Shown here: piece after piece, positions 1,802 through 16,983 of the stretch
Layout of the letters: the number at the start of each line of letters is the position of its first letter
How positions within the stretch are numbered: the stretch's first letter is position 1
NCBI RefSeq assembly: GCF_016127575.1
Contig: NZ_CP066019.1
Coordinates: 450,001-482,000, forward strand
DNA from: Cupriavidus necator
GTDB lineage: Bacteria; Pseudomonadota; Gammaproteobacteria; Burkholderiales; Burkholderiaceae
DNA: 32,000 nt
Direction of reading: 5' to 3'
Translations under genes and position numbers: made by a program
The notes under the pieces: generated by a model
Databases searched by the model: none
What the model was told of the DNA's origin: nothing
What the model saw: the letters and a program-made list of their open reading frames with translations, nothing else

Positions 1802-2974
1802 CTAAGCAAATGGTCGAATCGATTTGCTGTAGCCGTTCCGGATGCCTGATGAGAAGAACCCGCCGCACTCCGCCTTTCGCGCACAGGGCTCGCATTCTGG
1901 TGCGTATTCGTTCTTCCAGTCAGAGATGGACTTGACATATGCTGGCTCGACATCCGCATTCACCAAGCAGAGTTGATGGTTATACACAGACGTCTTGAGT
2001 CCATAGCTTCTTAGAATCCCGACAGCCGTACTAAGCTCCGTCTTGTAGTCGGCGGGGTCGATCCAGAGCGCATCCAGGTTCGCGCGGGTGAACCCGGTCA
2101 TTTCCAATCCCATTAGCGCGACGTGGTCGACAAACAGAAGATTCCGGGCAATGAATTCTGAAAGCGCAGGCAGACCTTTATAGGTTTGCTTGTGGACCAC
2201 AACACGAATCTCAACTTTCTGATTCAGGCGTTTCAGATTCAGGATGCCTCGAATTGTTTCATCAAAGGCCCCTTCGGCTTGGACAACGTAGTCATGACGT
2301 GCCGGGTCGGCCGAGTAGACTGGGATGCCTATCATCACATCGGGATGCTGAACTGCTGCATATTGTTCAGCAAACGCCGCGGCGGCGAATGTTCGCCCGT
2401 TCGACAGGATGTGCAGGGAGGTACGTGGTAGCCAGTTCCTAATTTGATGAAGCAGATCGATGAATCCGTCGCCGAACAGCGTTGGTTCTCCGCCTGTAAT
2501 GCCCAGCGAACGCGTGTTCCGCGGAATCAGGCGAACGGTCTCCATGGCCTCGTCCAGCAACCAGCGGTCATCAACCTTCTTCGGTGGCTGCGAACACATC
2601 AAGCAATAGTTGTTGCACTGCTCTGTAAGCAGGATGCTGTTGTGGTTGGACTCCGCCCGGAAAAGCGCTCTGATCCTACCGTCGCCGGTCAAGCTGACAA
2701 CATCGCCCTCAGCCAGGTAAGAGAACTCGTCGGTCAACAGGGTGCAGGGGATGTCATCGGTCAGGCTCGTCGGCCGTTCGTTGAACGCGAAATAGTGAGC
2801 GAAGCCGGTGGGGGCCGGCACATTAGATCGGGACAGGTAAGCCCTTGCCCCCCTCAATGGGAGTGGAAGGGCAGGATTCGTACTGAGGCTGAACTGCCGC
2901 CGAGGTGCCGGCGATTGCGGCTGTGGAGCCTTCTCCTCGGCGAGGCGGATAACGCGTCCTGAAAGTGTTAGCAT
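1802..2974 (-). CDS. hxsC: His-Xaa-Ser system radical SAM maturase HxsC
   Basis: Radical SAM CX3CX2C motif (CNNYCLMC) followed by GITGGEPTL. C-terminal Cys cluster CEPCARKAEC-GG. It is the last gene of the hxsA-D-B-C cassette. I prefer ATG at 2974 (MLTLSGRV...) over the track's GTG at 2986; that ATG overlaps the hxsB stop as ATGCTAA. Confidence 0.85.
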   Translation of the reverse strand: MLTLSGRVIRLAEEKAPQPQSPAPRRQFSLSTNPALPLPLRGARAYLSRSNVPAPTGFAHYFAFNERPTSLTDDIPCTLLTDEFSYLAEGDVVSLTGDGRIRALFRAESNHNSILLTEQCNNYCLMCSQPPKKVDDRWLLDEAMETVRLIPRNTRSLGITGGEPTLFGDGFIDLLHQIRNWLPRTSLHILSNGRTFAAAAFAEQYAAVQHPDVMIGIPVYSADPARHDYVVQAEGAFDETIRGILNLKRLNQKVEIRVVVHKQTYKGLPALSEFIARNLLFVDHVALMGLEMTGFTRANLDALWIDPADYKTELSTAVGILRSYGLKTSVYNHQLCLVNADVEPAYVKSISDWKNEYAPECEPCARKAECGGFFSSGIRNGYSKSIRPFA

Positions 2975-4431
2975 CGATTCACCCACCGCATGAAAATTTC
3001 CCTGGCTGCTTCGTCATTGCGCATCTTATCGAGCAGGTACTTGGTAATCCCCATGACGCGCTTGCAGAAGTCGGACTCCGGCTTCCGTCCAAGAACGTCG
3101 CCATACATGCCATGGTGAAACACAGGGTCGGATCCACACCACGGCTCGAACGCACAATCGCTACACATTGGTGCAGACGCCGTGAAGGAGTCTTCGAGGG
3201 CCGTCAGTAGCGCGTCCGCGGTGAATATTTCCTCGTAACTGTTCTGATGAACATTACCGATGCGGAACGTCGTGTCGCCCATCTCACGCAGCATGCGGCT
3301 CTCGTCAGACGCATAGACGTCACCGTCGTAGTTAAACACGACGGCTGCGATGCCGGCGCCTGCAGGAGTCATCAGATCCACAAAGCCAGGGTCTTCGGCC
3401 GACATCATCTTGGTCAGCAACAGGGTGGAGTAGTACTCGGTGAAGGGCGTTCCTGCCTTGTTGAGGGCGAGGATGTAGTCCATTCCCTCTTTGTAGAATT
3501 CGAGCCACCGTTCGGTGTTGTAGGCCTGAAAGCTCTTCGTCTTGAGCGCAAAGCCGTAGGGGGAGAGATGGCGCAGAAAAATACCGTCGAAGCCATGCTT
3601 GAGGTATTCGTCGATGATGTCGCGGACGCGATTCAGACTTGCCGGCGAAGTGGTCATCAGCGCGGATACCGAGTCGTAGCCCACCATGTCGCGGGCGCGC
3701 TTGAGGCCTGAGACAAAGCGCTCGTGACTGTCCCGACCGGGACGCGGCCGGTTCTTGTTATGCAGGTCCGCCGGGCCATCCAGGGAGGATGACAGGAAGA
3801 TCTTGTGGTCGCGACAGAACTCCAGAATCTCATCCGTGGCCAGCGACAAGGTTGTGGTGATAACAAACTGGAGATCCCGGCCTTCCACTTTGTTTATTTT
3901 CTCAGCCTTTTTCACTACATATCGAATCAGCTCGAAGTTCAGTAATGGCTCACCACCTTGAAACTCAATTTTTATAGCGGGGTTCGGGGAACGGAAAACG
4001 AGGTCCAAAGCCTTGTCCGCTGTCTCCGGTGTCATATCGAAGGCCGCTTTGTTCTCCGACTGGCGAGAGACTTGGCAATACTGGCAACTATGATCGCAGC
4101 GTAACGATGCGACAAATATGTGCAGATTCGTGAAGTTGGAAAGCTTACTAAACTTGGTCCGCGTCTTCAGTGTGAGCAGTTCCAAACTAGCTTCGTCACC
4201 GGCTTCACGGAGGAAATGCCGGGATCTCAGCGTAATGTAGTCGGGGTCGCTAGGACTCAAACGATGCGCTACGAGGTCCTCAAGCTGCCGGCGAGATAAA
4301 AAAGCAAACTCGCCGACGGCATTCGTGGCCACCACATTTTCGTTATCCAGGGCTTCAAACCGAAACGGTAGTAACTGATATCGCCCCGCATTCTTGCTTT
4401 GATAGCTCTCTAGGCTGCGAAACTTATTCAT
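2968..4431 (-). CDS. hxsB: His-Xaa-Ser system radical SAM maturase HxsB (SPASM/twitch-type C-terminus)
   Basis: 487 aa with the CX3CX2C motif CDHSCQYC, the block EFQGGEPLL, and the C-terminal auxiliary-cluster-like motif CSDCAFEPWCGSDP...C. The ATG overlaps the hxsD stop (ATGA at 4428-4431). Confidence 0.85.
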   Translation of the reverse strand: MNKFRSLESYQSKNAGRYQLLPFRFEALDNENVVATNAVGEFAFLSRRQLEDLVAHRLSPSDPDYITLRSRHFLREAGDEASLELLTLKTRTKFSKLSNFTNLHIFVASLRCDHSCQYCQVSRQSENKAAFDMTPETADKALDLVFRSPNPAIKIEFQGGEPLLNFELIRYVVKKAEKINKVEGRDLQFVITTTLSLATDEILEFCRDHKIFLSSSLDGPADLHNKNRPRPGRDSHERFVSGLKRARDMVGYDSVSALMTTSPASLNRVRDIIDEYLKHGFDGIFLRHLSPYGFALKTKSFQAYNTERWLEFYKEGMDYILALNKAGTPFTEYYSTLLLTKMMSAEDPGFVDLMTPAGAGIAAVVFNYDGDVYASDESRMLREMGDTTFRIGNVHQNSYEEIFTADALLTALEDSFTASAPMCSDCAFEPWCGSDPVFHHGMYGDVLGRKPESDFCKRVMGITKYLLDKMRNDEAAREIFMRWVNRC

Positions 4432-4718
4432 TGTTGCAACCCTGTGCGCGAGAACGCGTACGCTAAAATCAGGTTTCTCGCTGCCTCTGTTTCGTTTTTT
4501 ATTTGCAGGCGGAGTTGTTGGTCGAGGAGTTCACGTTTGAAGTTGGCTAGAACGTCTTCCAGTGGTGCTGCGATGCCCCCGACCAATTCAATTTCGCAAA
4601 CTACGGAGGTCGGACTTTGCGAGATCAGCACCGTGAGCCGGTCTATGAATCTGTATGCCGCCTTTTGTACCGCCTCCAGGCAGTAGACGGCGGAATCTAG
4701 TTCCAAACGTGTTGTCAT
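4428..4718 (-). CDS. hxsD: His-Xaa-Ser system protein HxsD (small accessory protein)
   Basis: 96 aa, located between the precursor and maturase genes. It contains ELLDQQLRLQI, which fits the LLNDYxLRE-type motif after which the HxsD family model was named (from memory). Translationally coupled to hxsB. Confidence 0.75.
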   Translation of the reverse strand: MTTRLELDSAVYCLEAVQKAAYRFIDRLTVLISQSPTSVVCEIELVGGIAAPLEDVLANFKRELLDQQLRLQIKNETEAARNLILAYAFSRTGLQQ

Positions 4719-4732
4719 GGGGACCTTGGAGG

Positions 4733-4755
4733 AGCCGACCCACGAGGAGTCGGCT
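4733..4755 (-). promoter_or_regulatory. intercistronic stem-loop between hxsA and hxsD
   Basis: 7-bp stem agccgac (4733-4739) / gtcggct (4749-4755) with a 9-nt loop, inside the 58-nt hxsA-hxsD spacer. No U-tract follows on the minus strand. Confidence 0.4.
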
Positions 4756-4776
4756 ATGAAATGTGTTTGTTTCTGC

Positions 4777-5073
4777 TTAGTACCGGCTGGAGTAGTGCGA
4801 CGAATGCGACCGGTGCGACGAATGTGATGAGTGCGACTGATGCCACGCCATCAGCTTTCCCTCATGGGCGTCCGAGCGCTTCAGGATGAAATTGAAGACG
4901 TCGCCGGCAGAGTCTGTCACTGCGATTCTTTCGAGAGATTTGGCGTCAATCGAAGTGGTCGATGAAGCATCAACCGAATGTGTCGGCGCTTGCGACGGCA
5001 GCTGCGCTGCAGTGGCGCCCTGCGCCGCAAAACCTGCGGCGACTGCCGCAAATGTTTTGAGGAACCCCTTCAT
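4777..5073 (-). CDS. hxsA: His-Xaa-Ser repeat precursor protein HxsA
   Basis: 98 aa. The N-terminus MKGFLKTFAAVAAGFAAQGATAA looks like a signal peptide. The C-terminus reads W-HQS-HSS-HSS-HRS-HSS-HYS-SRY-stop, i.e. six H-x-S repeats. Strong SD (GGGAGA) lies 5 nt upstream of the ATG at 5073. Confidence 0.85.
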   Translation of the reverse strand: MKGFLKTFAAVAAGFAAQGATAAQLPSQAPTHSVDASSTTSIDAKSLERIAVTDSAGDVFNFILKRSDAHEGKLMAWHQSHSSHSSHRSHSSHYSSRY

Positions 5074-5129
5074 ACCGTCTCCCTTTTTATTAGTCCGCCT
5101 CTCTAGAAATTCAGCCTGCGGATGTATAA

Positions 5130-5171: not shown

Positions 5172-5867
5172 CAAGGCGTATTGGCCGTGTAAGGTCTTGG
5201 TACACCTTGTAAGGAAGTGTAACATCCGATTTTTGAATTGGCGGCATAAGGTGCTATGTGTGCTTTGTTATGCTCTCGCACATGTGGTTTTTGACAAGAA
5301 TCCTAAATCGAAAGTGGATACCGAGGCGCTTTGGAAGTTCTGCGCTTATGATCGATCGACGTGCGACATCGGAAGCCCATCCCGAGTGGTACCTCCGAAC
5401 CTTTGGCGCGGTCCGGCCAACTCTGGACAGAAGTGCGGGGGTTGGTCGTGGATGTTCACCAGTCCGAGGCAACGGGGATTCCAACGAGATCAAATACGTC
5501 AGCCCGACCCATTGGCCACAGGCGGACGAGGGGAAGATGAATTTCCCGGGTTGCAGCCCCTATCGAGTGAATATGCTAACTGACAGCAAAGAGGTTTTCA
5601 ATGCGAAGGCAAATGCTAGTCCTGCGTGTGGGAATTGACCGTGGGGGCGGGAACTATTAGGAGCCCCGATTTGCGGATCGCAGTTTTGAGTACACATTGA
5701 TTCCGGAATTTAAGGTTCATCGCTGATTTCCGGGAAGGCACAGATCGGCCAAGAGCTGTCGCCACCGCAATTTGCGATGATTCAACGGGCGCGCTTGCCG
5801 TCCTCGGTGGCCGTAGTGCATCATCCCTGCCGTACAAATCCACAAGCGCCTTACGGAGCTAACGCAC

Positions 5868-7094
5868 ATGGCGTACTCGAAGTCCAGGACCAGTCTGCTG
5901 ATTGCTTTTCTCATTGCGAGCAGCGCCACTTTCGCGCAGCATGAGGTCAATTTCCACGACCCCATCAATATCGAAGGCCACGTGTCGGAAAAAAATGGCC
6001 CACAACATGCAGGTGGAGCAGAAAAGGGTGGCCCGGAGGGCCCACGCGACAAGCCAGCTAACGGCCCAACCACCACGATTCAGGCTCAACCCATTGATGT
6101 AGTTGCGGAAATGTCCCGCGGTCGAATCAGCGGGAAGGATGCTGTTCCTGTCACGGTGGGAGGCGTCACCTACATGGTGTCGCCTCAAGCAAAGGCGGAC
6201 CTGAAGGAATTTATCAAGACGTACAACGCGACCGGCCACGTCGGACAGCTTGTCGCTGCAGCCGCAACCCTTTTCGCAATGTTTGGACTCGTCACCGAGC
6301 CCGATCTGAGTCAGATCGATTTCAACATCGACGAGACTGTAATGGTGCTGTCGGCGCCTTCGATCTTTGCAGCAGCTTGGCGCGCCCAGGCCTTGGACTA
6401 TGTTCGAGGCTACATCAATCCCAGCCGCGCCCATACCCAAGAGGGTCGCATGTGGCAGCGGATGGAAGATCTGATCCGCGAGCCGGGGAGGTATCGCGAC
6501 GGCGGTATCAAGCGGGAGCCGAATGGGCAAATACAAATGCGCGCGCTGCCCGCGCAGCGGTATCGCGATGTGCCAGGCGACTATCCCCTGACGCAAGCGG
6601 ACGAGGTCGAACTGGGACGGCTGATCGATAGCCTGCGACGGAACCCCATTGCCATGGACTACCTTGCTAAAACTGACGCCGTGTTGGGCATCTATACGCA
6701 GGACCCACAAGGACGGCCAAGACTGTCCGCACGAGACCAATACCTCATGAACATGGCGCTACTGCGACTCGCGCCCCAAGAGAAGACACAACTCGCACAA
6801 GCATTCTGGCGAAACACGCAGTTTCCGGCCGCACTCACGCCGGCATTCTGGTCATCCATGTCGGCCTACCTGCAGCGTGAGGAATGGGATCGCAATTCGC
6901 ACATCGCAATCCTGCGTCACATGGCGGGCTTCAGCGACGACCTTGGCTTTCCGGACGAGTTGCCGAGGTATGACGATGGGTTCTGGACGAACATCGCACC
7001 AGCAGCGTTGGCGGCCACTGGGCCGATCTTCGTCTTTCCCCAGCACGGCCCGCAGGCTTGGACCTTCCACTATCCCGGTCCCGGAGGCCAGTAG
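5868..7094 (+). CDS. hypothetical secreted protein (no recognisable domain)
   Basis: 408 aa with a Sec-type N-terminus (MAYSKSRTSLLIAFLIASSATFAQ|HE). Amino-acid composition is balanced compared with the Arg/Cys-rich antisense ORF 5859-6740. GGAG lies 11 nt upstream of the ATG. Confidence 0.65.
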   Translation: MAYSKSRTSLLIAFLIASSATFAQHEVNFHDPINIEGHVSEKNGPQHAGGAEKGGPEGPRDKPANGPTTTIQAQPIDVVAEMSRGRISGKDAVPVTVGGVTYMVSPQAKADLKEFIKTYNATGHVGQLVAAAATLFAMFGLVTEPDLSQIDFNIDETVMVLSAPSIFAAAWRAQALDYVRGYINPSRAHTQEGRMWQRMEDLIREPGRYRDGGIKREPNGQIQMRALPAQRYRDVPGDYPLTQADEVELGRLIDSLRRNPIAMDYLAKTDAVLGIYTQDPQGRPRLSARDQYLMNMALLRLAPQEKTQLAQAFWRNTQFPAALTPAFWSSMSAYLQREEWDRNSHIAILRHMAGFSDDLGFPDELPRYDDGFWTNIAPAALAATGPIFVFPQHGPQAWTFHYPGPGGQ

Positions 7095-7486: not shown

Positions 7487-7708
7487 TCACTCCACCGGAC
7501 AAATCTCCCCCGCCGTCCGGTCAAACTTCGCCTTAATCATCGCCACCAGACACCGGATACCAAAGCAAGCATCCGAACATTCGCTTTCCACTTCCAACAG
7601 CACTAGCACCCTGTCCAATCCAGCACTGATGCAATTCAGCGATTCGCGACAATCTTCCGGATTGGCGATCAAGACGGTTTGTTGTTTCGACGCGGTTTGC
7701 TCTTCCAT
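7487..7708 (-). CDS. hypothetical small acidic protein (73 aa)
   Basis: ATG at 7708 is preceded by AGGAG with a 6-nt spacer, and a canonical terminator follows. The sequence (…NPEDCRESLNCISAGLDRVLVLLE…CLVAMIKAKFD) vaguely recalls DUF3077-type proteins; that is an unverified memory. Confidence 0.6.
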   Translation of the reverse strand: MEEQTASKQQTVLIANPEDCRESLNCISAGLDRVLVLLEVESECSDACFGIRCLVAMIKAKFDRTAGEICPVE

Positions 7709-8019
7709 TGCGAACTCCTATCAAAGTTGGAAGACCCGCCTGATGGATAAAAATGAAGGGTGGCGGGCCAGACAGCGGGGGTACCAAACCGGTCTTCACA
7801 GAGTAATCCGGCCAGCCTTTCGGCTGCCCCGCCCGGCCCGCCAAAAACTGAGGAGACGTGGACGCGCGAACTTGGCCGTATGAGACGGCCGTCTGTAAAG
7901 ATCCGGGTTGGTACGCCCGATCACCGTTGTCTCGGTGATGGCTCCAGTGTTCCCATCTCTGTCGTCTGTGGCGATCAGACGATTCGCAATCTTCCGGCGC
8001 TTCGCTGTCAGGCAGTTGC

Positions 8020-8520
8020 CTAGCGAATCCTGTCGAACCCACCAGCAGCCCAACGCTCTGCGCTGTCCCGCGTCAGCCGAAAGTCGGGCCGCACCTTCAC
8101 AGTCGCCAGCACATCGCCGAAGGAATCCTCAGCCGTGAGCGTGCCAAAGGGCTCGAATTCATCCGGCGTAATGACGAGCTTCACAATCACAGTGCCGGAT
8201 TCAGACTCGATACTGACCTGCTTGTTGAGCTGCGCATGCAATTGCTGCTCATGCCGCCGGATAACCTCTGAAGCCGTCTTGACCAGCGTCTGGTGCGCAG
8301 TGGCATCCAGCGGCTTGGGATCGACCTTGTTTCGCCCCATGGTCCAGGGACCGACCAGCGCGGGCTCGGCGCTGCCGCCGCGGATCATTTCGACTGCCCA
8401 GCCGTCGCCGTCCTCGTTCTTGATGACGCGGGCGGTCCAGCCCTTGTCGCGCCAGAGGCGGGGCTCGTGGATGGCGGTGGATTCGTGCTCGGAAAGGGCG
8501 TCGTCGGTGTGGTGCATCAA
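8020..8520 (-). CDS. hypothetical protein (166 aa)
   Basis: Composition is protein-like (…WTARVIKNEDGDGWAVEMIRGG…). TTG at 8520 and ATG at 8517 are adjacent candidate starts. I recognise no domain. Confidence 0.55.
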   Translation of the reverse strand: MMHHTDDALSEHESTAIHEPRLWRDKGWTARVIKNEDGDGWAVEMIRGGSAEPALVGPWTMGRNKVDPKPLDATAHQTLVKTASEVIRRHEQQLHAQLNKQVSIESESGTVIVKLVITPDEFEPFGTLTAEDSFGDVLATVKVRPDFRLTRDSAERWAAGGFDRIR

Positions 8521-8749: not shown

Positions 8750-9436
8750 CTATCCCTGATCCTTCTCGGACAGCGCGCTTTCCAGTAGCTCACGTGCCTC
8801 CCTTCCATGAAGCCAAATGCAACGCTTCCATTCTTCGGTGGCTCCGTGCCTTCCTAAATATGCCTCGCGCTCTTCGGCGGTTAAGGATTCCCAGAATGAA
8901 GACCAATAGTTATCCCACCAATATTCAATGTCGCCTTGCAGGAATCCCAGCTTAAGCGGTTCGCTAATCTCTGGAAAGGCGACCCACGGAGGCGGTGGAC
9001 TTGAGTTGGCCACTACTATGCGATCCAACACGGAAGTATCGTTGGTCATCATTGATACTATTGATCCAGAAAATTCATTACTGAACGCAATGGAGATGAA
9101 AAAATCTCCAGCCTCATTGCCGCTGCGTCTTATATACAAGTGCTCATCAACTTTATCGAATCCGTTTTTAATGCCTTCGATAAGCTCATGTACCTTATTC
9201 GACTCCAGTTGAAAGTGAGCGTAAAAAGCATTTATACCCGTTCCGGGTAATAAGCTGGAAATCTCAGGGTACCTAGAAGGCCTCTTTTCAGTCGCTGATA
9301 TTGGCACCATATCTAGCGGACGAGAAAATAAACCTTTCAATTCTTCCAGCGAGCGGCCGAAGCGTGCTCGGAGGGCTCGATTCCGCTCCTCGGCGATACG
9401 CCTGTGAGTCAACATGTCGCGCAATTTCTTGAGCAC
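8750..9436 (-). CDS. hypothetical protein (228 aa), AT-rich gene with a Trp-rich C-terminal region
   Basis: GTG at 9436 is preceded by GGAG with an 8-nt spacer. The C-terminal block PPPWVAFPEISEPLKLGFLQGDIEYWWDNYWSSFWESLTAEEREAYL looks like a folded domain that I cannot name. Confidence 0.6.
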   Translation of the reverse strand: MLKKLRDMLTHRRIAEERNRALRARFGRSLEELKGLFSRPLDMVPISATEKRPSRYPEISSLLPGTGINAFYAHFQLESNKVHELIEGIKNGFDKVDEHLYIRRSGNEAGDFFISIAFSNEFSGSIVSMMTNDTSVLDRIVVANSSPPPPWVAFPEISEPLKLGFLQGDIEYWWDNYWSSFWESLTAEEREAYLGRHGATEEWKRCIWLHGREARELLESALSEKDQG

Positions 9437-9628: not shown

Positions 9629-11992
9629 CTAGGCGCGGCTGAACATCGACTTCCTGATAATGGCATGCACGCCCCAGTTGCCATTCACCACCTGCGTGAT
9701 ACCAAAATCCACTGCAACAGAGATCAGCGCAACCGCCTCATCTTCACTCAGCCCCTTGACCGACATAAGGAAGCGGCGTGTCTTGCGGAAGGCGTCGCGC
9801 ATGGCGTCGTCCAGGGTGGACTTCAGGTAGATATGGCTCTGCGCCATCTGGCCCAGTTCAGCCAGGTGGTTGGGCGAGCTGAAGCCATGCAGGATCCATT
9901 CGTCGGCGGTTTCCACCAGCGGGTAGCTCAGGTCGGCGAAGGGAGCGTCGCGGTCGATCATGGTGCTCTTGTGCAGGACGAGCTGGAAGTCACCGGTCAG
10001 CGAGCATTCGATGGCCGTGCCGCACAGCTCGGAGTCTCCCTGCGAGGCATGGGGATCGCCAATCGACAGCAGGGCGCCCGGCACGGCTACCCTGAGGTAG
10101 ACGCTGGCGCCCCGGGTGACGCGCCAGTTGTCCAGGTTGCCGGCGAAGCTGGAGGGCGGGATGGAGTCGATCAGGCCGTCCTGCGCCGGCGCCACGGCGA
10201 TGACGCCGAAGTGGGGGCGGACCGGTATCTCGATATCGCGCAGCACGTCGTAGTTCTTGACGATGGTGTCGTGGTCGACCGGCACGCCGGGATAGTCGAT
10301 GGTCGGGTGCAGCACGCCGAACGGATCGCGCTGCGGCGTCCAGCGGAAGTTGTAGACCGCGCGCGCACGGCTGTCGGCGCGTTCGCAATCGATCTCGAAG
10401 ACGGTGACCACTTCGCGCTCGCGCGGCTCGGTCAGCATGTCGCGGTAATGAAAGCCCCACCAGGTCGCGGCGTTGCTGCCGAAGGCCCTGCCGGCAAAGC
10501 GCGGGTTGCAGCACGGGCGCGGGCGCACGTCCAGGATGCGCACCTCCAGCACATCGCCGGGCATGGCGCCGCGCACCGCGACCGGGCCGGTGCAGATATG
10601 CACGCCAAAGCCTTCGCCGGCGCCGCGGCCGTAGACCGACGCATCGATGGGGCCCGCGCCGCGCCGGTTGACGTTCTTCTGCTCCGCGGTCCAGTGAAAG
10701 ACGCTTTCGGCGCCGGCGTCGCCGTCGATCATGCGTTCCCGGTCGTCAGAGGCGTGCTGCGTCAGGGTTTCGATGGTGACGGTGTCGCCGGGCATGACCT
10801 CAAGCACGGGCGGCAGGTCGTGGCTGAGATAGCCCCAGTGCACGGTCTTGTCCGTGGCCTGCAGCCAGTGGTGCCGGCCTTCCGGGCGGGCGGCGTGCGA
10901 GCGCGCCTGGGTGATGGGGACGATGGTGGGCGCCGCTTGCAGGCGCGCAGCAGGGCCATCGTTCGCGGGCGCGCCATGGCTAGCGGGAGCCCGCTTCGCA
11001 TTGGCCGGAAGCCCGCGGGAGACATTCTGCGGTGGGCGATGCTCGGGCGTGTTCGCGGTCTGCTCACGGTAGGCGCGGGGCGAGATCCCGAACTGTTCGC
11101 GAAACGCGTGGCTGAAGTGCGAAGGGTCGTTGAAGCCCCAGCGATAGCAGATGTCGGAGACCGAGAGCTTGTCGTACTGGTGGTTCGCCAGGTCGGCCCG
11201 GCATCGCTCGAGCCGGCTGGTGCGCAGGTAGGCGGAAAAGCTGCTGCCGGATTTCTCGAAGAGCTTCTGCAGGTAGCGGGCCGACATGCGCTCGTCCGCG
11301 GCGATGGCGGCGAGGCTGAGTTCCGGCTCGGCAAGGCGTGCGTCGATGCGGCTGCAGACGCGCGCAAAAACGGCCGCGCGCGAGGGCGTCATGTCCGGCG
11401 GTGCGCTGGGCTGGCTGTCGGCCAGCGCGGCGTCAAGGCAGGCGGTGATGGTGTTGTCGAAGGGCTGGATGGCCTTGGCGTTTGCGGACACGATGGTGTC
11501 GAAGCTGGCCGCCATGGACTGGAGCAGGCGGGCAAACAGTTCAGCGGCGTCGCCGCTCAGCACCAGCGCGGAGCGAGGCAAGGGGGCCGTGATGCGTGCG
11601 CTCAGCAATGCCTGGCCGATATGCACGATCAGCATGCGGAAGCTGGTGGCCAGGGCCAGCCTGCGGGCGGCGTGTTCCGGCACGCAGACCACCTGCCCCG
11701 GCCGCAGCGGTTCACGCAGTTCCGGCGCAGCGAGGTGCGCTTCGCCTTCGGTCAGCATCAGCAGCATCAGGCCGCGGCCGTCGCCGCTGGTGATGGCCAG
11801 CGTCTGGGGGACCGATGCAATGCAGGTCAGCTCGATGCCCGCGGGGGTGGTCCGCGACTCGATCGTGCCGTGCAGGGTGTGATCGGCGCACAGGCTTTCG
11901 CAATGCAGGCGTGCGGCGCGGAGTTCGTCACGCCAGGCTGCGCCGCGCCGGTTGTGTGGATAGGCTTCGGTGGAAAAACGCAAAAGGTGCAA
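9629..11992 (-). CDS. AraC-family regulator (effector domain + HTH) fused in-frame to an acetamidase/formamidase-family domain
   Basis: One uninterrupted frame. The AraC HTH reads …RYLQKLFEKSGSSFSAYLRTSRLERCRADL…ICYRWGFNDPSHFSHAFREQFGISPRAYRE and ends ~11060. A Pro/Ala/Arg-rich linker spans 11059-10865. The amidase domain (TVHWGYL…GDVLEVRILDV…NLDNWR…SIGDPHASQGDSELCGTAIE…FGITQVV) runs to the stop at 9629. Start reassigned to TTG at 11992 (AGGGAGG + 5 nt), because the track's start at 12199 overlaps the upstream XapX gene. Confidence 0.7.
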   Translation of the reverse strand: MHLLRFSTEAYPHNRRGAAWRDELRAARLHCESLCADHTLHGTIESRTTPAGIELTCIASVPQTLAITSGDGRGLMLLMLTEGEAHLAAPELREPLRPGQVVCVPEHAARRLALATSFRMLIVHIGQALLSARITAPLPRSALVLSGDAAELFARLLQSMAASFDTIVSANAKAIQPFDNTITACLDAALADSQPSAPPDMTPSRAAVFARVCSRIDARLAEPELSLAAIAADERMSARYLQKLFEKSGSSFSAYLRTSRLERCRADLANHQYDKLSVSDICYRWGFNDPSHFSHAFREQFGISPRAYREQTANTPEHRPPQNVSRGLPANAKRAPASHGAPANDGPAARLQAAPTIVPITQARSHAARPEGRHHWLQATDKTVHWGYLSHDLPPVLEVMPGDTVTIETLTQHASDDRERMIDGDAGAESVFHWTAEQKNVNRRGAGPIDASVYGRGAGEGFGVHICTGPVAVRGAMPGDVLEVRILDVRPRPCCNPRFAGRAFGSNAATWWGFHYRDMLTEPREREVVTVFEIDCERADSRARAVYNFRWTPQRDPFGVLHPTIDYPGVPVDHDTIVKNYDVLRDIEIPVRPHFGVIAVAPAQDGLIDSIPPSSFAGNLDNWRVTRGASVYLRVAVPGALLSIGDPHASQGDSELCGTAIECSLTGDFQLVLHKSTMIDRDAPFADLSYPLVETADEWILHGFSSPNHLAELGQMAQSHIYLKSTLDDAMRDAFRKTRRFLMSVKGLSEDEAVALISVAVDFGITQVVNGNWGVHAIIRKSMFSRA

Positions 11993-12089
11993 TTGAACCT
12001 CCCTGGCATCACGCTGCAACAGCGAAAACGGGCGGACATTGCTGTCCGCCGCGCATCCAAAGCATTTCCTGCGAAGGCCGGGCCCTCCG

Positions 12090-12281
12090 CTAGCCGAACA
12101 GCAACTGCCCCCGCATCGCGGCCACCAGTACGAATCCCGCGAACGTGCCAAAGATGGCGAAGATCCCGCCGAGCACGTTCGGGGCCGGTATCGGTGCACG
12201 TACCGCAGTGTAGATAACGCCGGTCACCAAGCCAACGGCTGCGGCCTGCAGCTCGGTGCTGCCCAATGCAATTTCCACCAT
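12090..12281 (-). CDS. XapX-domain (DUF1427-like) small membrane protein, copy 2
   Basis: 63 aa: MVEIALGSTELQAAAVGLVTGVIYTAVRAPIPAPNVLGGIFAIFGTFAGFVLVAAMRGQLLFG. Two hydrophobic helices flank a P-I-P-A-P-N-V turn. GGGGA precedes the ATG at 12281; ATG at 12299 is an alternative start. It is the internal part of track ORF 12090-12620. Confidence 0.65.
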   Translation of the reverse strand: MVEIALGSTELQAAAVGLVTGVIYTAVRAPIPAPNVLGGIFAIFGTFAGFVLVAAMRGQLLFG

Positions 12282-12555: not shown

Positions 12556-13581
12556 TCAGCCCTTGTCCTTGGGCGGGAAGATCGAGCGCGGCATGGTGCA
12601 ATGGATGCCCTGGGTGCCATCGACGACCTGCGTCACGCCGAAGTCAGCCGAGACGCTCATGAGCGAATAGGCATCGTCGCGCGAGAGTCCCTGTTGCTCG
12701 GTCAGCAGGTGGATCATGTCGCGGGCCGCGTTCTTGCCGGCTTCATCCAGGTCTTCATGGAAGCCGTGGACGACCCAGCAATCCGGCGTTTCCAGCAGCG
12801 GCGAGGGGAAGTGGAAGTCCTTGCGCAGGACCACCTGGAACAGGACGTTCAATGAGGCCTCGATGGCGGTGCCGCTGATCTCGCCGTCGCCTTGCGAGAT
12901 ATGCGGGTCGCCGATCGAGAACAGCGCGCCGTCGACCTGGACCGGGTAGTACATGGTGGCGCCCGCGCCGATGCGCCAGTTGTCGATATTGCCGCCATGC
13001 AGGCCGGGCTCGACGGTGGTGACGCGGCCGCGCGCGTCGGGCGCGACGCCAGCGGTGCCCAGGTGCGGGCGCACGGGAACCCGCACACCGGCCAGCGCCG
13101 GCTGCCTGCAGCATTCCCGCTCATCCACGAGCTTGCCGGGGATGGTCATCTTGCCGGGGTAGTCGAAGGCGTACAGGGCATGCGCGGTGTTGGAGCGCTG
13201 GTCCAGCTCATAGATGGTGACCCGCTCCTTCTCGAACTCTTTGTACAGCTGGCCCCAGTGCGCCGCGGCATTCGCCCCGAAACGGAAGCGCGGAATCATC
13301 TGCAGGTAGCGCACCTCCAGCACGTCGCCGGGCTTGGCGTCTTCGACATAGATAGGGCCGGTCATGATGTGCACGCCGGGGTTGCGGTCGTCGTGGGGAA
13401 TCGCCCGGAAGATCTCGCGAATGGCGTCGTCCATCATCAGGTCGGGGGCATCGCCGGCATGGTGGGTTACCGCTTCGGCGCGGATGAGGTCGCCGCTTTT
13501 CACGGTCAGGGCGGGCGCCTTGGCGGCATCGAAGTAGCCCCAGTGGACGGTCTCGGGGCGGGCGGGCAGGTCGTGCAGCAT
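12556..13581 (-). CDS. acetamidase/formamidase family protein
   Basis: 341 aa with ETVHWGYFD, PGDVLEVRYLQ, GGNIDNWR, SIGDPHISQGDGEISGTAIE and DFGVTQVVDG. It is a paralog of the C-terminal domain of the 9629-11992 product. Confidence 0.9.
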   Translation of the reverse strand: MLHDLPARPETVHWGYFDAAKAPALTVKSGDLIRAEAVTHHAGDAPDLMMDDAIREIFRAIPHDDRNPGVHIMTGPIYVEDAKPGDVLEVRYLQMIPRFRFGANAAAHWGQLYKEFEKERVTIYELDQRSNTAHALYAFDYPGKMTIPGKLVDERECCRQPALAGVRVPVRPHLGTAGVAPDARGRVTTVEPGLHGGNIDNWRIGAGATMYYPVQVDGALFSIGDPHISQGDGEISGTAIEASLNVLFQVVLRKDFHFPSPLLETPDCWVVHGFHEDLDEAGKNAARDMIHLLTEQQGLSRDDAYSLMSVSADFGVTQVVDGTQGIHCTMPRSIFPPKDKG

Positions 13582-14045: not shown

Positions 14046-15374
14046 CTATTGCGATGGCGCCTCGGGCCATTTCCCCTTGCGGGGAAGGCGCATATCGAAC
14101 TCGGTGAACACGTGCTCCTCGGAGCGGCAGCTGATGCTTGCCCCCCAGCTGTTCAGCACCTTCTGGCAAAACGCCAGTCCGATGCCGGTGCCGCGATGTG
14201 CCGGGTAAGAGAAGAAGGGCTGGAACATCCGGGCCAGCACTTGCGGCGGCACGCCCGTGGCGGTGTCGCGGAACACCACATGGACGGCGTCGGGCCGGAC
14301 CTCGCAGCGGATATGGATGGTGCCCTTGCCGGCCCGCTTGGTCGCTTCCAGCGCGTTCTTCAGCAAGTTGGTCGTGACCAGCCCGAACAACTGGGCGTTG
14401 CCCATCACGTAGGCGGGGCCAGGCAGGTCGACGGTGACCAGATCCAGGTCGCTGTGCTCGAACGGAAACCGGCCGACAGCGTCGCGGATCACACCGCCCA
14501 GTTCGAACAGCTCCTGCGTGGCGTTGTCCGGGTTCTTGGAGTTGGCGACCAGCAGTTCAATGCTGTTGCTAATATGGGCCAGGTCTGATTCCATCCGGGC
14601 CACGGCCTGCATCAGGCCGTCGCGCTGCGGCGTGTCCTGGTCCAGGGCTGCCGGCAGCCGCGCCTTGAGGCCCCTGGCAGTCATGGCCAGGCTGGTCAGC
14701 GGCGTGCGCAGTTCGTGCGCGACGGTGGCCAGCGCGGCGGCCATCCCGCGCCGCTTCTGTTCGGCCAGCAGCTGGCGGTCCATCTTGATCACCACCAGCA
14801 CCGCGATGACAAAGCCGATCACCGGCAGCTGCAGCAGTACCGGCTCCCACGGGATTCCGCCCATGGAGTTGCCCGCCAGCACGAACAGCGCAATGGCTGC
14901 TGCGGCCCCTGAGAACAAGGCAATGGTCGCGAACGCGGTGTTGAAGTGATACAGGATCACCACCGCGATGATGACCGATTCGGCCCACACCATGGAGCCG
15001 CCATTCTCCAGGTAGAAGAAGATAAAGGCGAACGGCAGGCCTATGGTAATGGCAAAGAGTGCATAGGGCGGCAGCCAGCGCCGGTCCGAGAAGGCGGAGG
15101 CGAACAGCAGCGGCACGAACAGCGCGGTGCAGACCAGGCGCAGCCAGAGGTTTTCATAGGGCTGCGGGAAGATGTAGGACCAGATCACGTAGTACAGCGG
15201 GTGTCCGATCACGCCCAGCGCCCCCACCATCTGGATCCGGCGCAGCCGGATGACGCTCTCCTCGTCCAGCAGCGTAGCCCGCGCGGCGGTCTCGAATACA
15301 GTCTGCCACGCATCGCGGGCGACGCCGGCAAGTGAGGTGCGGCCGTCTTCCGCTTGCGCTACCTTTGCATCCAT
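14046..15374 (-). CDS. cqsS: CqsS/LqsS-type alpha-hydroxyketone autoinducer sensor histidine kinase (no receiver domain)
   Basis: The polytopic N-terminus (…GALGVIGHPLYYVIWSYIFPQPYENLWLRLVCTALF…) aligns by eye with V. cholerae CqsS (…GMLGFPAYYFIWEYWFPQSYENLGLRCAAAVLF…). H-box is HELRTPL, N-box is LLKNALEA, G-box is GTGIGL. The protein ends ~30 aa after the G-box. Start set at ATG 15374, 9 nt after the cqsA stop; the track's start at 15461 overlaps cqsA. Confidence 0.8.
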   Translation of the reverse strand: MDAKVAQAEDGRTSLAGVARDAWQTVFETAARATLLDEESVIRLRRIQMVGALGVIGHPLYYVIWSYIFPQPYENLWLRLVCTALFVPLLFASAFSDRRWLPPYALFAITIGLPFAFIFFYLENGGSMVWAESVIIAVVILYHFNTAFATIALFSGAAAAIALFVLAGNSMGGIPWEPVLLQLPVIGFVIAVLVVIKMDRQLLAEQKRRGMAAALATVAHELRTPLTSLAMTARGLKARLPAALDQDTPQRDGLMQAVARMESDLAHISNSIELLVANSKNPDNATQELFELGGVIRDAVGRFPFEHSDLDLVTVDLPGPAYVMGNAQLFGLVTTNLLKNALEATKRAGKGTIHIRCEVRPDAVHVVFRDTATGVPPQVLARMFQPFFSYPAHRGTGIGLAFCQKVLNSWGASISCRSEEHVFTEFDMRLPRKGKWPEAPSQ

Positions 15375-15382
15375 CTCCAGGA

Positions 15383-16675
15383 CTACTCCTCGCGGGAGCC
15401 TGCCAGCGACCCGCTTGTGGGATTTTGAGACTTGCGCCGGGCCCGGCGCGTCGAGGACCATTCATCCAGCCGGACTTCGTCGCGGATGCTGGCGAGCACG
15501 CCGACCAGGCGGTCGATTTCATTGGCGGCAAGTTTCGCATGCAGCGTAAGTCGCATCAATGCCCGATTCTTCGGTGTTGCCGGCGCACAGAATACCGCGC
15601 CGAAGATCCCGCGGCTCTGCAGCGCATCGCGCAGCACCTTGACTTGCGGCTCGGTTCCCGCCTCCAGGCCGATGATCTGCTCGGAGCCTTCGCTGATGTT
15701 GTAGCCCAGTTCGGCAATCGCAGCCCGGGTGTCGCGAGTGATGGCGTGCAGGCGCGCACGGCGCTCATCCGCCGTGGCGACGAAATCCGTCACGGCATCG
15801 AACCACGCAACCTCATGGCGCAGCAGCCCGGAACTGAAAATGGCCGGCCGGGACTCAACCGCGAAGAAGTCCTTGAAGTCGGTCGAACAGGCAACATAGC
15901 CGGCGCGGCCGGCAAACGCCTTGGCCAGCGAGGCCGTGCGGAAGTGTACGCGCTCGGACAGCCCGAGCGCGCGCACCAGGCCGCCGCCAGACGGCCCATG
16001 GGTGCCGAGCGAGTGCGACTCATCCACCACCAGCACGCAGCCAGACGCCTCCGCCAGGTCGACATAGTCCTCCAGCGGCGCCACGCTGCCGGTGGTGCTG
16101 TAGACCGAGTCCACCATGATCACGCCCGGGCCGAAGCGCTCAAGCTGGCGGCGCACGTGCTCGCAATCGTTGTGGCGCACCGGCACGGCCTGCGCGCCCG
16201 CGGCGATGATGCCCTCCCACAGGGAGGCATGCCCGTTCATGTCGATATAGACCGGAATGCCGGGGCCGGCAATGCACTGCACCAGGCCGACGTTGGCGGC
16301 CCAGCCGGACTGGGCGATCAGCCCGTCCTCGGCCTGCATCAGGTCTGCGATCTTGCGCTCGACGCGCCGCTGCGGGGTGTCGCCGTGCTGGAACACGGAC
16401 GACATCAGCAACTCCGGCTCCTCATTGAGGAAGGCCCGCGCCTGCGCCTGTACCAGAGAGGTCTCGCCGAGCAGGCAGAGATAGTCGTTGCTGCTCAGGT
16501 GCAGTGCATCGGGCCCGGGCGTGCGTCCGTGAAGCAGATGATCGCCGCCCCAGAGCTTGCCCATCCGCTCGTCGAAATGTTGTGCCATCCGCGCCGTGAT
16601 CCATGGCGGCAGCGTGGGGGCTTTGGCGCGAGAGGCGTGGCGCATCGAGTGCGGAGGCTCGGCTTCGGAGAACAT
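15383..16675 (-). CDS. cqsA: CqsA/LqsA-type autoinducer synthase (PLP-dependent alpha-oxoamine synthase family)
   Basis: Blocks SQSGWAANVGLVQ, VDSVYSTTGSVAPL, VDESHSLGTHGPSGGGL, HFRTASLAKAFAGRAG, PAIFSSGLL, EQIIGLEAG and FGAVFCAPATPKNRALMRLTL match V. cholerae CqsA almost block for block (from memory). Start reassigned to ATG 16675 (SD GAAGGAAAG); the upstream part of the track ORF looks non-coding. Confidence 0.9.
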   Translation of the reverse strand: MFSEAEPPHSMRHASRAKAPTLPPWITARMAQHFDERMGKLWGGDHLLHGRTPGPDALHLSSNDYLCLLGETSLVQAQARAFLNEEPELLMSSVFQHGDTPQRRVERKIADLMQAEDGLIAQSGWAANVGLVQCIAGPGIPVYIDMNGHASLWEGIIAAGAQAVPVRHNDCEHVRRQLERFGPGVIMVDSVYSTTGSVAPLEDYVDLAEASGCVLVVDESHSLGTHGPSGGGLVRALGLSERVHFRTASLAKAFAGRAGYVACSTDFKDFFAVESRPAIFSSGLLRHEVAWFDAVTDFVATADERRARLHAITRDTRAAIAELGYNISEGSEQIIGLEAGTEPQVKVLRDALQSRGIFGAVFCAPATPKNRALMRLTLHAKLAANEIDRLVGVLASIRDEVRLDEWSSTRRARRKSQNPTSGSLAGSREE

Positions 16676-16983
16676 CGGCTTTCCTTCTACAGGTCGGGTA
16701 ATCAGTGAGATCGGTGGCAAGGCTCTGCATGGCGGTTGCGGCAAAAAGCTGCCGTCCGCGCGCGACGCGGCCGCACCCAGTCCTTCCGGCGAGGTGCCAT
16801 TGCTGACAAGTCGGGGGAGTCCTGTTGACGTAGCGACCACTGTGCCAGCCTTACTCAGCGATTGTGACCGGACTTCCACCAATCCAACGTCCGTTTGGAG
16901 TGGGGGGTGCCGGGTTGAGACAGCCGCGTCGTGGCCGCACCTTCGCCGGCCGATAGGCCGATTTCTCACTGTAAAATGCCTTT

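Follow-up and report, generated by a model that had tools for sequence, protein, structure and literature searches.

The subject of this work is a four-gene His-Xaa-Ser (HXS) cassette carried by a 32,000-nt stretch of Cupriavidus necator DNA (contig NZ_CP066019.1, positions 450,001 to 482,000), which we call the window. The best described relative of this cassette is the HXS system of Escherichia coli, a broad antiphage system encoded by the operon hxsD-B-C-A (Li et al., Nat Commun 2026, PMC13128918). Defence reaches 110 of 113 coliphages and needs all four genes, and it involves neither abortive infection nor a block in adsorption. E. coli HxsA is a 214-aa protein with a signal peptide, five HxS repeats near the N terminus, and a peptidoglycan-binding domain, which is itself required for defence. 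HxsB, HxsC, and HxsD mature this protein by N-terminal processing and by a +8 Da change (proposed +C/-4H) on the SHRSS sequence of the last repeat, and mutations in the radical S-adenosylmethionine (SAM) cysteines, the auxiliary cluster cysteines, or the HxsD motif abolish both processing and defence. HxsC binds HxsD in pull-down experiments, and HxsB, HxsC, and HxsD are all far scarcer than HxsA. Mature HxsA is periplasmic and binds DNA, and the system blocks the entry of phage DNA. The chemistry behind the +8 Da change is unresolved, partly because HxsA is insoluble and its processing complex, and in vitro reconstitution failed (PMC13128918).

The order D-B-C-A was found in 99.6% of the HXS systems surveyed in that study, which mentions neither HxsA2, nor Cupriavidus, nor the betaproteobacteria (PMC13128918). 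Our literature search returned no further paper on HXS function. A paper from 2022 still gives HxsB and HxsC as putative only and credits Haft and Basu with the definition of the Hxs families by comparative genomics (PMC9062424), as the initial annotation of this locus had stated. The same annotation took the product and function of the cassette to be unknown and was aware of no experiments on the modification chemistry, the mature product, or its biology; both statements have been overtaken by the E. coli work (PMC13128918).

The window cassette is almost certainly an intact A2-type HXS cassette. Its genes follow the order A2-D-B-C on the minus strand (Table 1), and the list of open reading frames (ORFs) bears out what had been read from the sequence initially, namely four co-directional genes, precursor and accessory proteins of 98 and 96 aa, the quoted motifs, and a complete cassette, with all four ORFs intact and all four Hxs families present. 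Family membership was assigned with NCBIfam models at their curated cut-offs, a check proposed in the initial annotation, and each of the four proteins scores above its cut-off. The precursor reaches 90.9 bits with the HxsA2 model NF038296 (cut-off 48), HxsD 61.6 bits with TIGR03976 (cut-off 50), HxsB 640.6 bits with TIGR03978 (cut-off 370, E=1.4e-192, full model 1-466 covered), and HxsC 422.7 bits with TIGR03977 (cut-off 267.9, E=5e-127). The family PF27806 HxsD is also precomputed for a protein identical to the window HxsD. With the canonical HxsA model TIGR03979, the window precursor scores 18 bits against a cut-off of 121.65, the repeats alone matching, whereas Klebsiella HxsA, the positive control, scores 162.8 bits. 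Judged by these scores, the match of the four genes to the Hxs families is far beyond chance and the precursor belongs to the A2 subtype, not to canonical HxsA. The earlier assignment to the HxsA-D families holds at the level of the four Hxs models, the A2 subtype of the precursor having escaped the first reading.

The hxsD stop and hxsB start overlap by 4 nt (ATGA), hxsB and hxsC overlap by 7 nt, and a 58-nt spacer separates hxsA2 from hxsD on the same strand. A Shine-Dalgarno sequence (GGGAGA) precedes hxsA2 at 5078-5083. The hxsC ORF is listed as 1802-2986 (394 aa) with a GTG start at 2986, and the likely start is the ATG at 2974 (390 aa), which is preceded by GGGAGA and is also used in the public annotation.

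The window is 100% identical over 15,073 nt to chromosome 2 of C. necator H16 (AM260480.1), which encodes the exact HxsA2 protein. NCBI names identical proteins "His-Xaa-Ser repeat protein HxsA2" and "His-Xaa-Ser system protein HxsD", and close relatives of the window HxsB carry the name "HxsB". The identification is thus correct but not new, as the public annotation already names these proteins as Hxs; the cassette is catalogued, is not a new kind of system, and is an exact member of the set NF038296, TIGR03976, TIGR03977, and TIGR03978, with no sequence difference. The HxsA2 family NF038296 is a bioinformatic definition, and no experimental function was found for it in the literature searched. 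Because the E. coli family member is antiphage, because the window cassette is intact and mobile, and because several relatives lie in conflict contexts, we lean with fair confidence towards a phage-defence system related to E. coli HXS, with a minimal, anchor-less effector.

The HxsA2 precursor begins with a predicted Sec-type signal peptide of ~23 residues (MKGFLKTFAAVAAGFAAQGATA/AQ, judged by inspection), made up of MKGFLK, a hydrophobic core, and ATA/AQ, a layout conserved across our alignment of 40 HxsA2 homologues. The program hhalign pairs this segment with the signal peptide of Klebsiella HxsA, and one source names an HxsA2 homologue "conserved exported". After the signal peptide come a variable linker, a conserved block from G57 to H78 (GDvFnFiLKR...G.LMAWH), six tandem HxS repeats at residues 78-95, and a terminal SRY, the C-terminal end reading MAWHQSHSSHSSHRSHSSHYSSRY. 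The repeat DNA forms a 9/18-bp tandem array, and hxsA2 is the one HxS-repeat ORF detected by a regex scan of the 32-kb window. HxsA2 contains no cysteine and no domain after the repeats, and a Pfam scan of the protein found no domain. The predicted mature peptide (residues 24-98) has a mass of 8.3 kDa and an isoelectric point (pI) of 7.3, close to the family median of 6.9, with basic charge confined to the tail.

The family alignment repeats this plan, with a signal peptide pattern MKKFL..FAAVAAGFA.Q.A.A, ~30 variable residues, the block GDxFxFVLKRS..TG.LMAYH, 5-7 repeats (median 6) in which X is mostly S, R, Y, or A, and a near-invariant end H-Y-S-[S/G]-R. Residues F62, H78, S83, H84, S89, H90, S92, H93, and S95 are invariant. 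The last repeat is S92-H93-Y94-S95-S96, with no SHRSS; Y94 occurs in at least 90% of the sequences, and the final residue of the motif is either S or G. The HxS tract is the presumed site of radical SAM modification, by analogy with E. coli, and we infer that the terminal S-H-Y-S-S pattern is equivalent to the modified SHRSS of E. coli HxsA. A profile search of 1.84 billion representative proteins returned 758 clusters at E<=1e-3, of which 210 reach E<=1e-10. Almost without exception they measure 87-120 aa and align end to end, which makes the short precursor the rule for a sizeable family. The family comprises at least 210 well-supported clusters at 50% identity and is common in environmental betaproteobacteria.

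Three relatives, in Rhodocyclaceae, Limnohabitans, and Saprospiraceae metagenome-assembled genomes (MAGs), carry a second, diverged HxsA2 precursor directly after hxsC, with the resulting order A2-D-B-C-A2. In these loci, two precursor substrates may share a single set of enzymes.

Both radical SAM enzymes of the window retain all of their cluster cysteines. HxsB carries the motifs CDHSCQYC and, at the C terminus, CSDCAFEPWC, with radical SAM cysteines C112, C116, and C119 and auxiliary cysteines C423, C426, C432, and C456, all invariant in 19 of 19 sequences including that of Klebsiella. HxsC carries CNNYCLMC and C-terminal CEPCARKAEC, with radical SAM cysteines C120, C124, and C127 and auxiliary cysteines C336, C361, C364, and C370, invariant in 20 of 20 sequences, again including Klebsiella. 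Since exactly three plus four cysteines are invariant in each enzyme, we assign one radical SAM cluster and one auxiliary cluster to each. The description of these enzymes as SPASM-type is a loose one. Both carry a C-terminal auxiliary-cluster cysteine motif, but the four conserved C-terminal cysteines per enzyme fall short of the full seven- or eight-cysteine SPASM motif with its two auxiliary clusters; in the Pfam scan for SPASM, HxsB scores 21.1 against a threshold of 21.5 and HxsC gives no match. From its sequence, the HxsB auxiliary region appears as a degenerate SPASM domain without the Aux-I cysteines.

The solved proteins nearest to HxsB in sequence are CteB, anSME, and TigE; for HxsC, the PDB offers the weak relative BlsE alone. 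Residues ~23-95 of HxsB are modelled as three strands followed by three helices (beta3-alpha3), suggesting an N-terminal domain similar to the recognition element (RRE) of ribosomally synthesized and post-translationally modified peptide (RiPP) enzymes. The best alignments of the model are with the RRE-bearing maturases CteB, TigE, and SuiB, with ~490-505 aligned columns for CteB and TigE compared to ~405 for the RRE-less anSME, at a template-modelling (TM) score of ~0.5. Conclusions from this model are hedged because its confidence is moderate (predicted local distance difference test, pLDDT, of 64).

HxsD contains the motif ELLDQQLRL, which corresponds to LLNDYxLRE in a weak hhalign alignment. 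D66 and R70 thereby fall on the motif's D and R, the residues that were mutated in E. coli, and both are invariant in the HxsD family alignment. The AlphaFold2 (AF2) model of HxsD (pLDDT 91.2) shows a beta-alpha-beta-beta-alpha-alpha order and has no PDB neighbour at E<=1e-3, the best matches being Pcc1/ferredoxin-like folds at E ~0.02. We rejected HxsD as a PqqD-type RRE on the grounds of this different topology and of the missing PDB match. Membership of HxsB or HxsC in the viperins was likewise rejected, the weak PADLOC cross-hits (E 1e-8 to 7e-5) reflecting the shared radical SAM fold; PADLOC-DB 2023 includes no HXS model.

As a canonical comparator we used a Klebsiella plasmid locus with the order D-B-C-A and an HxsA of 211 aa. 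The window cassette shares with the E. coli and Klebsiella systems HxsB, HxsC, and HxsD proteins that pass the same NCBIfam equivalog models, all 3+4 cluster cysteines of both enzymes, and the D and R of the HxsD motif. The precursors are alike in being exported, in carrying tandem HxS repeats after a hydrophobic or aromatic residue plus His, and in the S-H-x-S-S pattern of the last repeat (SHYSS in the window, SHRSS in the canonical systems). The differences concern the gene order (A2-D-B-C instead of D-B-C-A) and, above all, the precursor. HxsA2 has 98 aa, compared to ~211-214 aa in E. coli and Klebsiella, and its repeats are at the extreme C terminus, whereas those of canonical HxsA are N-proximal. 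In Klebsiella HxsA the repeats are followed by a Ser-rich linker and a PF01471 PG_binding_1 domain, whereas HxsA2 ends three residues past the repeats. BLASTP detected no similarity between the HxsD proteins of the window and of Klebsiella. Homology between the N-terminal modules of HxsA2 and canonical HxsA was considered and not shown, as BLASTP found nothing and hhalign aligned the signal peptide only.

In the Klebsiella IncF resistance plasmid NZ_LR130549 (locus L027, 4069-4998), the canonical hxsD is annotated with 79 aa and starts inside an IS1B end; an IS1 insertion may have truncated the 5' end of the gene.

A closer match in architecture is the cassette of the temperate Leptospira phage vB_LnoZ_CZ214-LE1 (KF114877), which has the order A-D-B-C, a 99-aa precursor, and no peptidoglycan-binding domain, and whose HxsB, 43% identical to the window HxsB, is closer to it than the enterobacterial HxsB. 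Its precursor nevertheless scores below the A, A2, and A3 cut-offs (32.8 versus 48 for A2), has an N terminus unlike that of HxsA2, and ends with SHRSS followed by a 14-residue acidic tail. By sequence, it may represent a further precursor subtype.

Among peptide-maturation systems, CteB/SCIFF, TigE, SuiB, and anSME resemble HxsB in overall build, in the beta3-alpha3 N-terminal domain, and in the adjacent peptide substrate gene. They differ in having a full SPASM domain with two auxiliary clusters where HxsB has one (four cysteines), while the Hxs cassette has an obligatory second, unrelated radical SAM enzyme (HxsC) and partner (HxsD), and its product is an exported peptide of ~75 aa with a Sec-type signal peptide in place of a leader-cleaved RiPP. 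Thioether chemistry is impossible for HxsA2, a substrate without cysteine. The PqqA/PqqD/PqqE system shares a short peptide, a partner of ~90 aa that forms a complex with the radical SAM enzyme, and a precursor gene in first position, but HxsD is not PqqD-like.

Two candidate regulatory elements were found by comparison, consensus promoter and terminator scans having remained at shuffle level and uninformative; the consensus scan gave no canonical sigma-70 promoter above noise. The first element, 114-150 nt upstream of the hxsA2 ATG, consists of phased TTACA repeats ~10 nt apart and a GTTAC/GTAAC-like inverted pair. Six of the 26 upstream regions contain the exact pattern TTACA-N5-TTACA, at a distance of 122-160 nt from the ATG, against a background of 0.0048 per 400 nt. 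All six carriers belong to the closest clade of cassettes, yet their genomic contexts are unrelated, and the sequence is likely to act as an operator or promoter and to move along with the cassette. The second is a GC-rich hairpin in the hxsA2-hxsD spacer, which is present at the same position in 20 of 23 related loci, mostly with a T-run after it. The stem sequences differ between clades, and the H16 hairpin has no T-run. This hairpin is likely, from its position and recurrence, an attenuator or an mRNA-stabilising stem that provides more precursor than enzymes. A precursor gene followed by an attenuator is a familiar layout of peptide-maturation operons. In the present case it fits the low abundance of HxsB, HxsC, and HxsD relative to HxsA in E. 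coli.

We compared the surroundings of 26 related loci, from Cupriavidus, Pandoraea, Limnohabitans, Rhodocyclaceae, Methylosinus, Sphingomonas, Herbaspirillum, and others. The A2-D-B-C order is kept in every locus with the upstream flank present, and the four H16 neighbours compared (the ghrA-like gene, orf408, orf166, and orf228) have no match in the 26 loci. In Cupriavidus sp. P-10, DNA homology is limited to window positions 1815-5054 (80.5% identity). No recurrent partner, whether exporter, protease, regulator, or metal transporter, was found in 20 loci, the most frequent Pfam family occurring three times in 130 ORFs. These comparisons indicate a self-contained mobile four-gene unit. The cassette has a GC content at third codon positions (GC3) of ~0.65, compared to ~0.85 in host genes, and the surrounding segment has 53-60% GC. 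The ratios of nonsynonymous to synonymous substitution rates (dN/dS) relative to C. phytorum are 0.098 for hxsA2, 0.096 for hxsD, 0.025 for hxsB, and 0.054 for hxsC, values that are approximate because dS is near saturation (1.7-1.9) and that nonetheless indicate purifying selection on the cassette.

Several of these surroundings suggest conflict with phages, without being conclusive. A second C. necator strain carries a diverged cassette between two H-NS genes, near HEPN_RiboL-PSP, YAcAr, HAD_SAK_2, and TniQ. The 130 ORFs flanking the cassette in 20 relatives include PADLOC matches to MADS (mad2/3/8), LmuB/AriA-like ATPases, PDC-M68A/B, PDC-S31, HNH/restriction endonuclease (REase), and SduA (Shedu), and genes matching defence models adjoin the cassette in C. 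phytorum, C. alkaliphilus, and Methylosinus. Integrase, TraH/TraG, and ABC-3C domains are also found in the flanks of relatives, and the cassette of the Leptospira phage KF114877 adjoins mobilome and IS66 genes. In H16 itself, the segment next to the cassette encodes a full-length C4 antisense RNA, the immunity RNA known from phages P1 and P7 (RF01695, E=4e-11, 64.8 bits for a gathering score of 45), in a region that matches several Ralstonia solanacearum phages at ~80% identity. Sub-threshold isrK and c4-a1b1 target matches precede this RNA and a 73-aa orphan ORF follows it, and the whole looks, by sequence, like the remnant of a prophage immunity module adjoining the hxs cassette.

As a phage-defence system, the cassette would work as follows. 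On the evidence of the sequence, hxsA2 is transcribed first, from the control region borne by the cassette, and is followed by the hairpin and the overlapping hxsD-hxsB-hxsC genes; the hairpin would keep the precursor in excess of the enzymes. HxsB and a complex of HxsC with HxsD would then act in the cytoplasm on the C-terminal His/Ser tail, as the genetics and pull-downs of the homologous E. coli system suggest; the FxFVLKR...LMAYH block is probably the recognition sequence, and the near-invariant terminal S-H-Y-S-S/G is probably the counterpart of the modified SHRSS site. Since the peptide is free of cysteine, thioethers are excluded and the chemistry has to take place on C-H bonds or on the side chains of His, Ser, Tyr, or Arg. 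The unusual side-chain chemistry proposed in the initial annotation is compatible with the +8 Da change of E. coli HxsA. Sec export and cleavage of the conserved signal peptide would then yield a peptide of ~75 aa and 8.3 kDa. Because it has neither a Ser-rich linker nor PG_binding_1, this peptide should be soluble in the periplasm, or possibly released. Its final action would be, like that of the canonical effector, to hinder the entry of the phage genome.

Several points weigh against this proposal. The published function tests cover no A2-type system, and the peptidoglycan-binding domain needed for defence in E. coli is missing from HxsA2. Homology between HxsA2 and HxsA appears undetectable at the sequence level outside the signal peptide and the repeats, and the enzymes of the window and of Klebsiella are only 32% (HxsB) and 35% (HxsC) identical. 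The mature pI of 7.3 contrasts with 9.4 for Klebsiella HxsA, which weakens a purely electrostatic model of DNA binding. The RRE assignment of HxsB depends on the model with a pLDDT of 64. As to context, the defence-island counts stand without a matched control, the neighbours of the H16 cassette have no match among PADLOC defence models, and one Pseudomonas locus has a core-like context around the cassette.

A further reading, which we consider doubtful, is that the A2-type cassettes are more than a reduced copy of the E. coli system. Lacking the peptidoglycan anchor on which canonical HXS depends, near-neutral, and ending right at a conserved candidate modified tail, HxsA2 may be a soluble or released radical SAM-modified peptide with a mode of action different from that of E. 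coli HXS. Possibilities include direct targeting of the phage ejection machinery or of an envelope component, metal binding, and action outside the cell. If this were true, the widespread A2 family would represent a second, mechanistically distinct class of HxS-repeat systems.

It is unlikely, in our view, that HxsA2 is a periplasmic or secreted His-rich metal-binding peptide (a metallochaperone, buffer, or metallophore) whose affinity is tuned by the radical SAM modification and which serves metal homeostasis in a metal-handling genus. The predicted exported mature peptide has eight His, six of them at every third residue, it is near-neutral and devoid of the basicity and cell-wall anchor of canonical HxsA, and two TonB-dependent receptors occur among the 130 flanking ORFs. 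However, no metal transporter, sensor, or regulator is recurrently linked in 20 loci, the bare four-gene unit moves into unrelated contexts that include conflict and mobile islands and a phage, and the sole experimentally studied homologue is an antiphage system (PMC13128918).

We judge as very unlikely a secreted RiPP, such as a bacteriocin, a signal, or another bioactive peptide, aimed at other cells and not at phages. The layout is RiPP-like (precursor, attenuator hairpin, two radical SAM enzymes, and small partner), the nearest solved relatives of HxsB are the RiPP maturases CteB, TigE, ChlB, and SuiB, and three loci have a second precursor copy. None of the 20 loci, however, has a linked leader peptidase, dedicated ABC exporter, or immunity gene, export relies on a generic Sec-type signal peptide and not on a cleaved RiPP leader, and the 75-aa product is large for a RiPP and retains a conserved non-repeat block. 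The least credible explanation is a silent or decaying horizontally acquired remnant without current function in H16, since the low-GC, foreign-looking segment with its orphan ORFs and phage remnant, the hairpin without T-run, the lack of a canonical sigma-70 promoter above noise, and the H-NS genes flanking the cassette in another strain, which would fit xenogeneic silencing, are outweighed by four intact ORFs with every catalytic and cluster residue, dN/dS values of 0.03-0.10, and an identical precursor on ~150 contigs. Each of these last three explanations is less well supported than phage defence.

To our knowledge, no defence system other than the HXS family has been reported to halt phage DNA in the course of entry, and no other has a protein effector modified by a radical SAM enzyme. 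HxsA2 offers a natural minimal substrate for this family, free of cysteine, ~75 aa long, and with the candidate modified tail at its C terminus. With such a minimal peptide from C. necator H16, a well-studied and tractable biotechnology strain, the open +8 Da chemistry becomes directly approachable. The anchor-less A2 subtype also provides a test of whether the cell-wall anchor is essential to the mechanism, and, if the cassette protects its host, this would bear on the phage robustness of industrial Cupriavidus strains.

Table 1. Positions of the cassette features, of neighbouring features in the window, and of features in related loci (L numbers, with positions in the respective locus).
Feature	Sequence	Positions	Strand	Basis
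hxsC, radical SAM maturase, 390 aa	window	1802-2974	-	TIGR03977; start per public annotation
hxsB, radical SAM maturase, 487 aa	window	2968-4431	-	ORF list, TIGR03978
hxsD, accessory protein, 96 aa	window	4428-4718	-	ORF list, TIGR03976
Hairpin AGCCGAC-TCCTCGTGG-GTCGGCT in the hxsA2-hxsD spacer	window	4733-4755	-	sequence and comparison
hxsA2, precursor/effector, 98 aa	window	4777-5073	-	ORF list, NF038296
HxS repeat tract HQS HSS HSS HRS HSS HYS	window	4789-4842	-	regex scan
Upstream element, 37 nt, GTTACACTTCCTTACAAGGTGTACCAAGACCTTACAC	window	5187-5223	-	comparative alignment
orf408, 408 aa, apparent signal peptide	window	5868-7094	+	orphan
73-aa orphan ORF after C4 RNA	window	7487-7708	-	
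C4 antisense RNA, full length, phage P1/P7 immunity type	window	7756-7848	-	Rfam RF01695
isrK and c4-a1b1 target matches (sub-threshold), preceding C4 RNA	window	7869-7952	-	
orf166, 166 aa	window	8020-8520	-	orphan
orf228, 228 aa	window	8750-9436	-	orphan
Second hxsA2 precursor, Rhodocyclaceae MAG	L008	9615-9914		
Second hxsA2 precursor, Limnohabitans MAG	L010	9628-9906		
Second hxsA2 precursor, Saprospiraceae MAG	L025	1875-2156		
Three-gene set after hxsC	L012	9647-14053		
Three-gene set after hxsC	L013	9701-14087		
Three-gene set after hxsC	L015	9668-14052		
Complete hxsA-D-B-C cassette of temperate Leptospira phage KF114877	L036	3293-6602		

The orphan genes orf408, orf166, and orf228 are located in the low-GC segment between the hxs cassette and the host AraC/formamidase gene. 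Together with the 73-aa ORF, they have no match in Pfam, NCBIfam, or PHROGs, and these three larger ones have none in PADLOC.

In two Limnohabitans strains and in Neopusillimonas, hxsC is followed by three co-directional genes, encoding proteins of 131-138 aa, a carbamoyltransferase of 611-622 aa, and proteins of 656-660 aa. The two copies scanned, L012 and L013, both match Carbam_trans_N/C in Pfam. This set could be a clade-specific linkage or simply shared synteny.

Beyond the low-GC segment, a single minus-strand ORF (9629-12199) combines an AraC-type regulator (AraC_binding_2, HTH_18, HTH_AraC) with an acetamidase/formamidase (FmdA_AmdA), and is publicly annotated as one gene of 787-796 aa; such a fusion of an AraC regulator with an enzyme is unusual. 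A second, stand-alone FmdA_AmdA gene is found at 12556-13581 (minus strand). Further on, also on the minus strand, lie a CqsA-type alpha-hydroxyketone autoinducer synthase (14046-15461; NF005526, 614.7 bits against a cut-off of 428) and a sensor histidine kinase (15383-16969) whose best match, a weak one, is LuxN-like. By sequence, these two genes of the secondary chromosome resemble a quorum-sensing pair of the CqsA/CqsS type.

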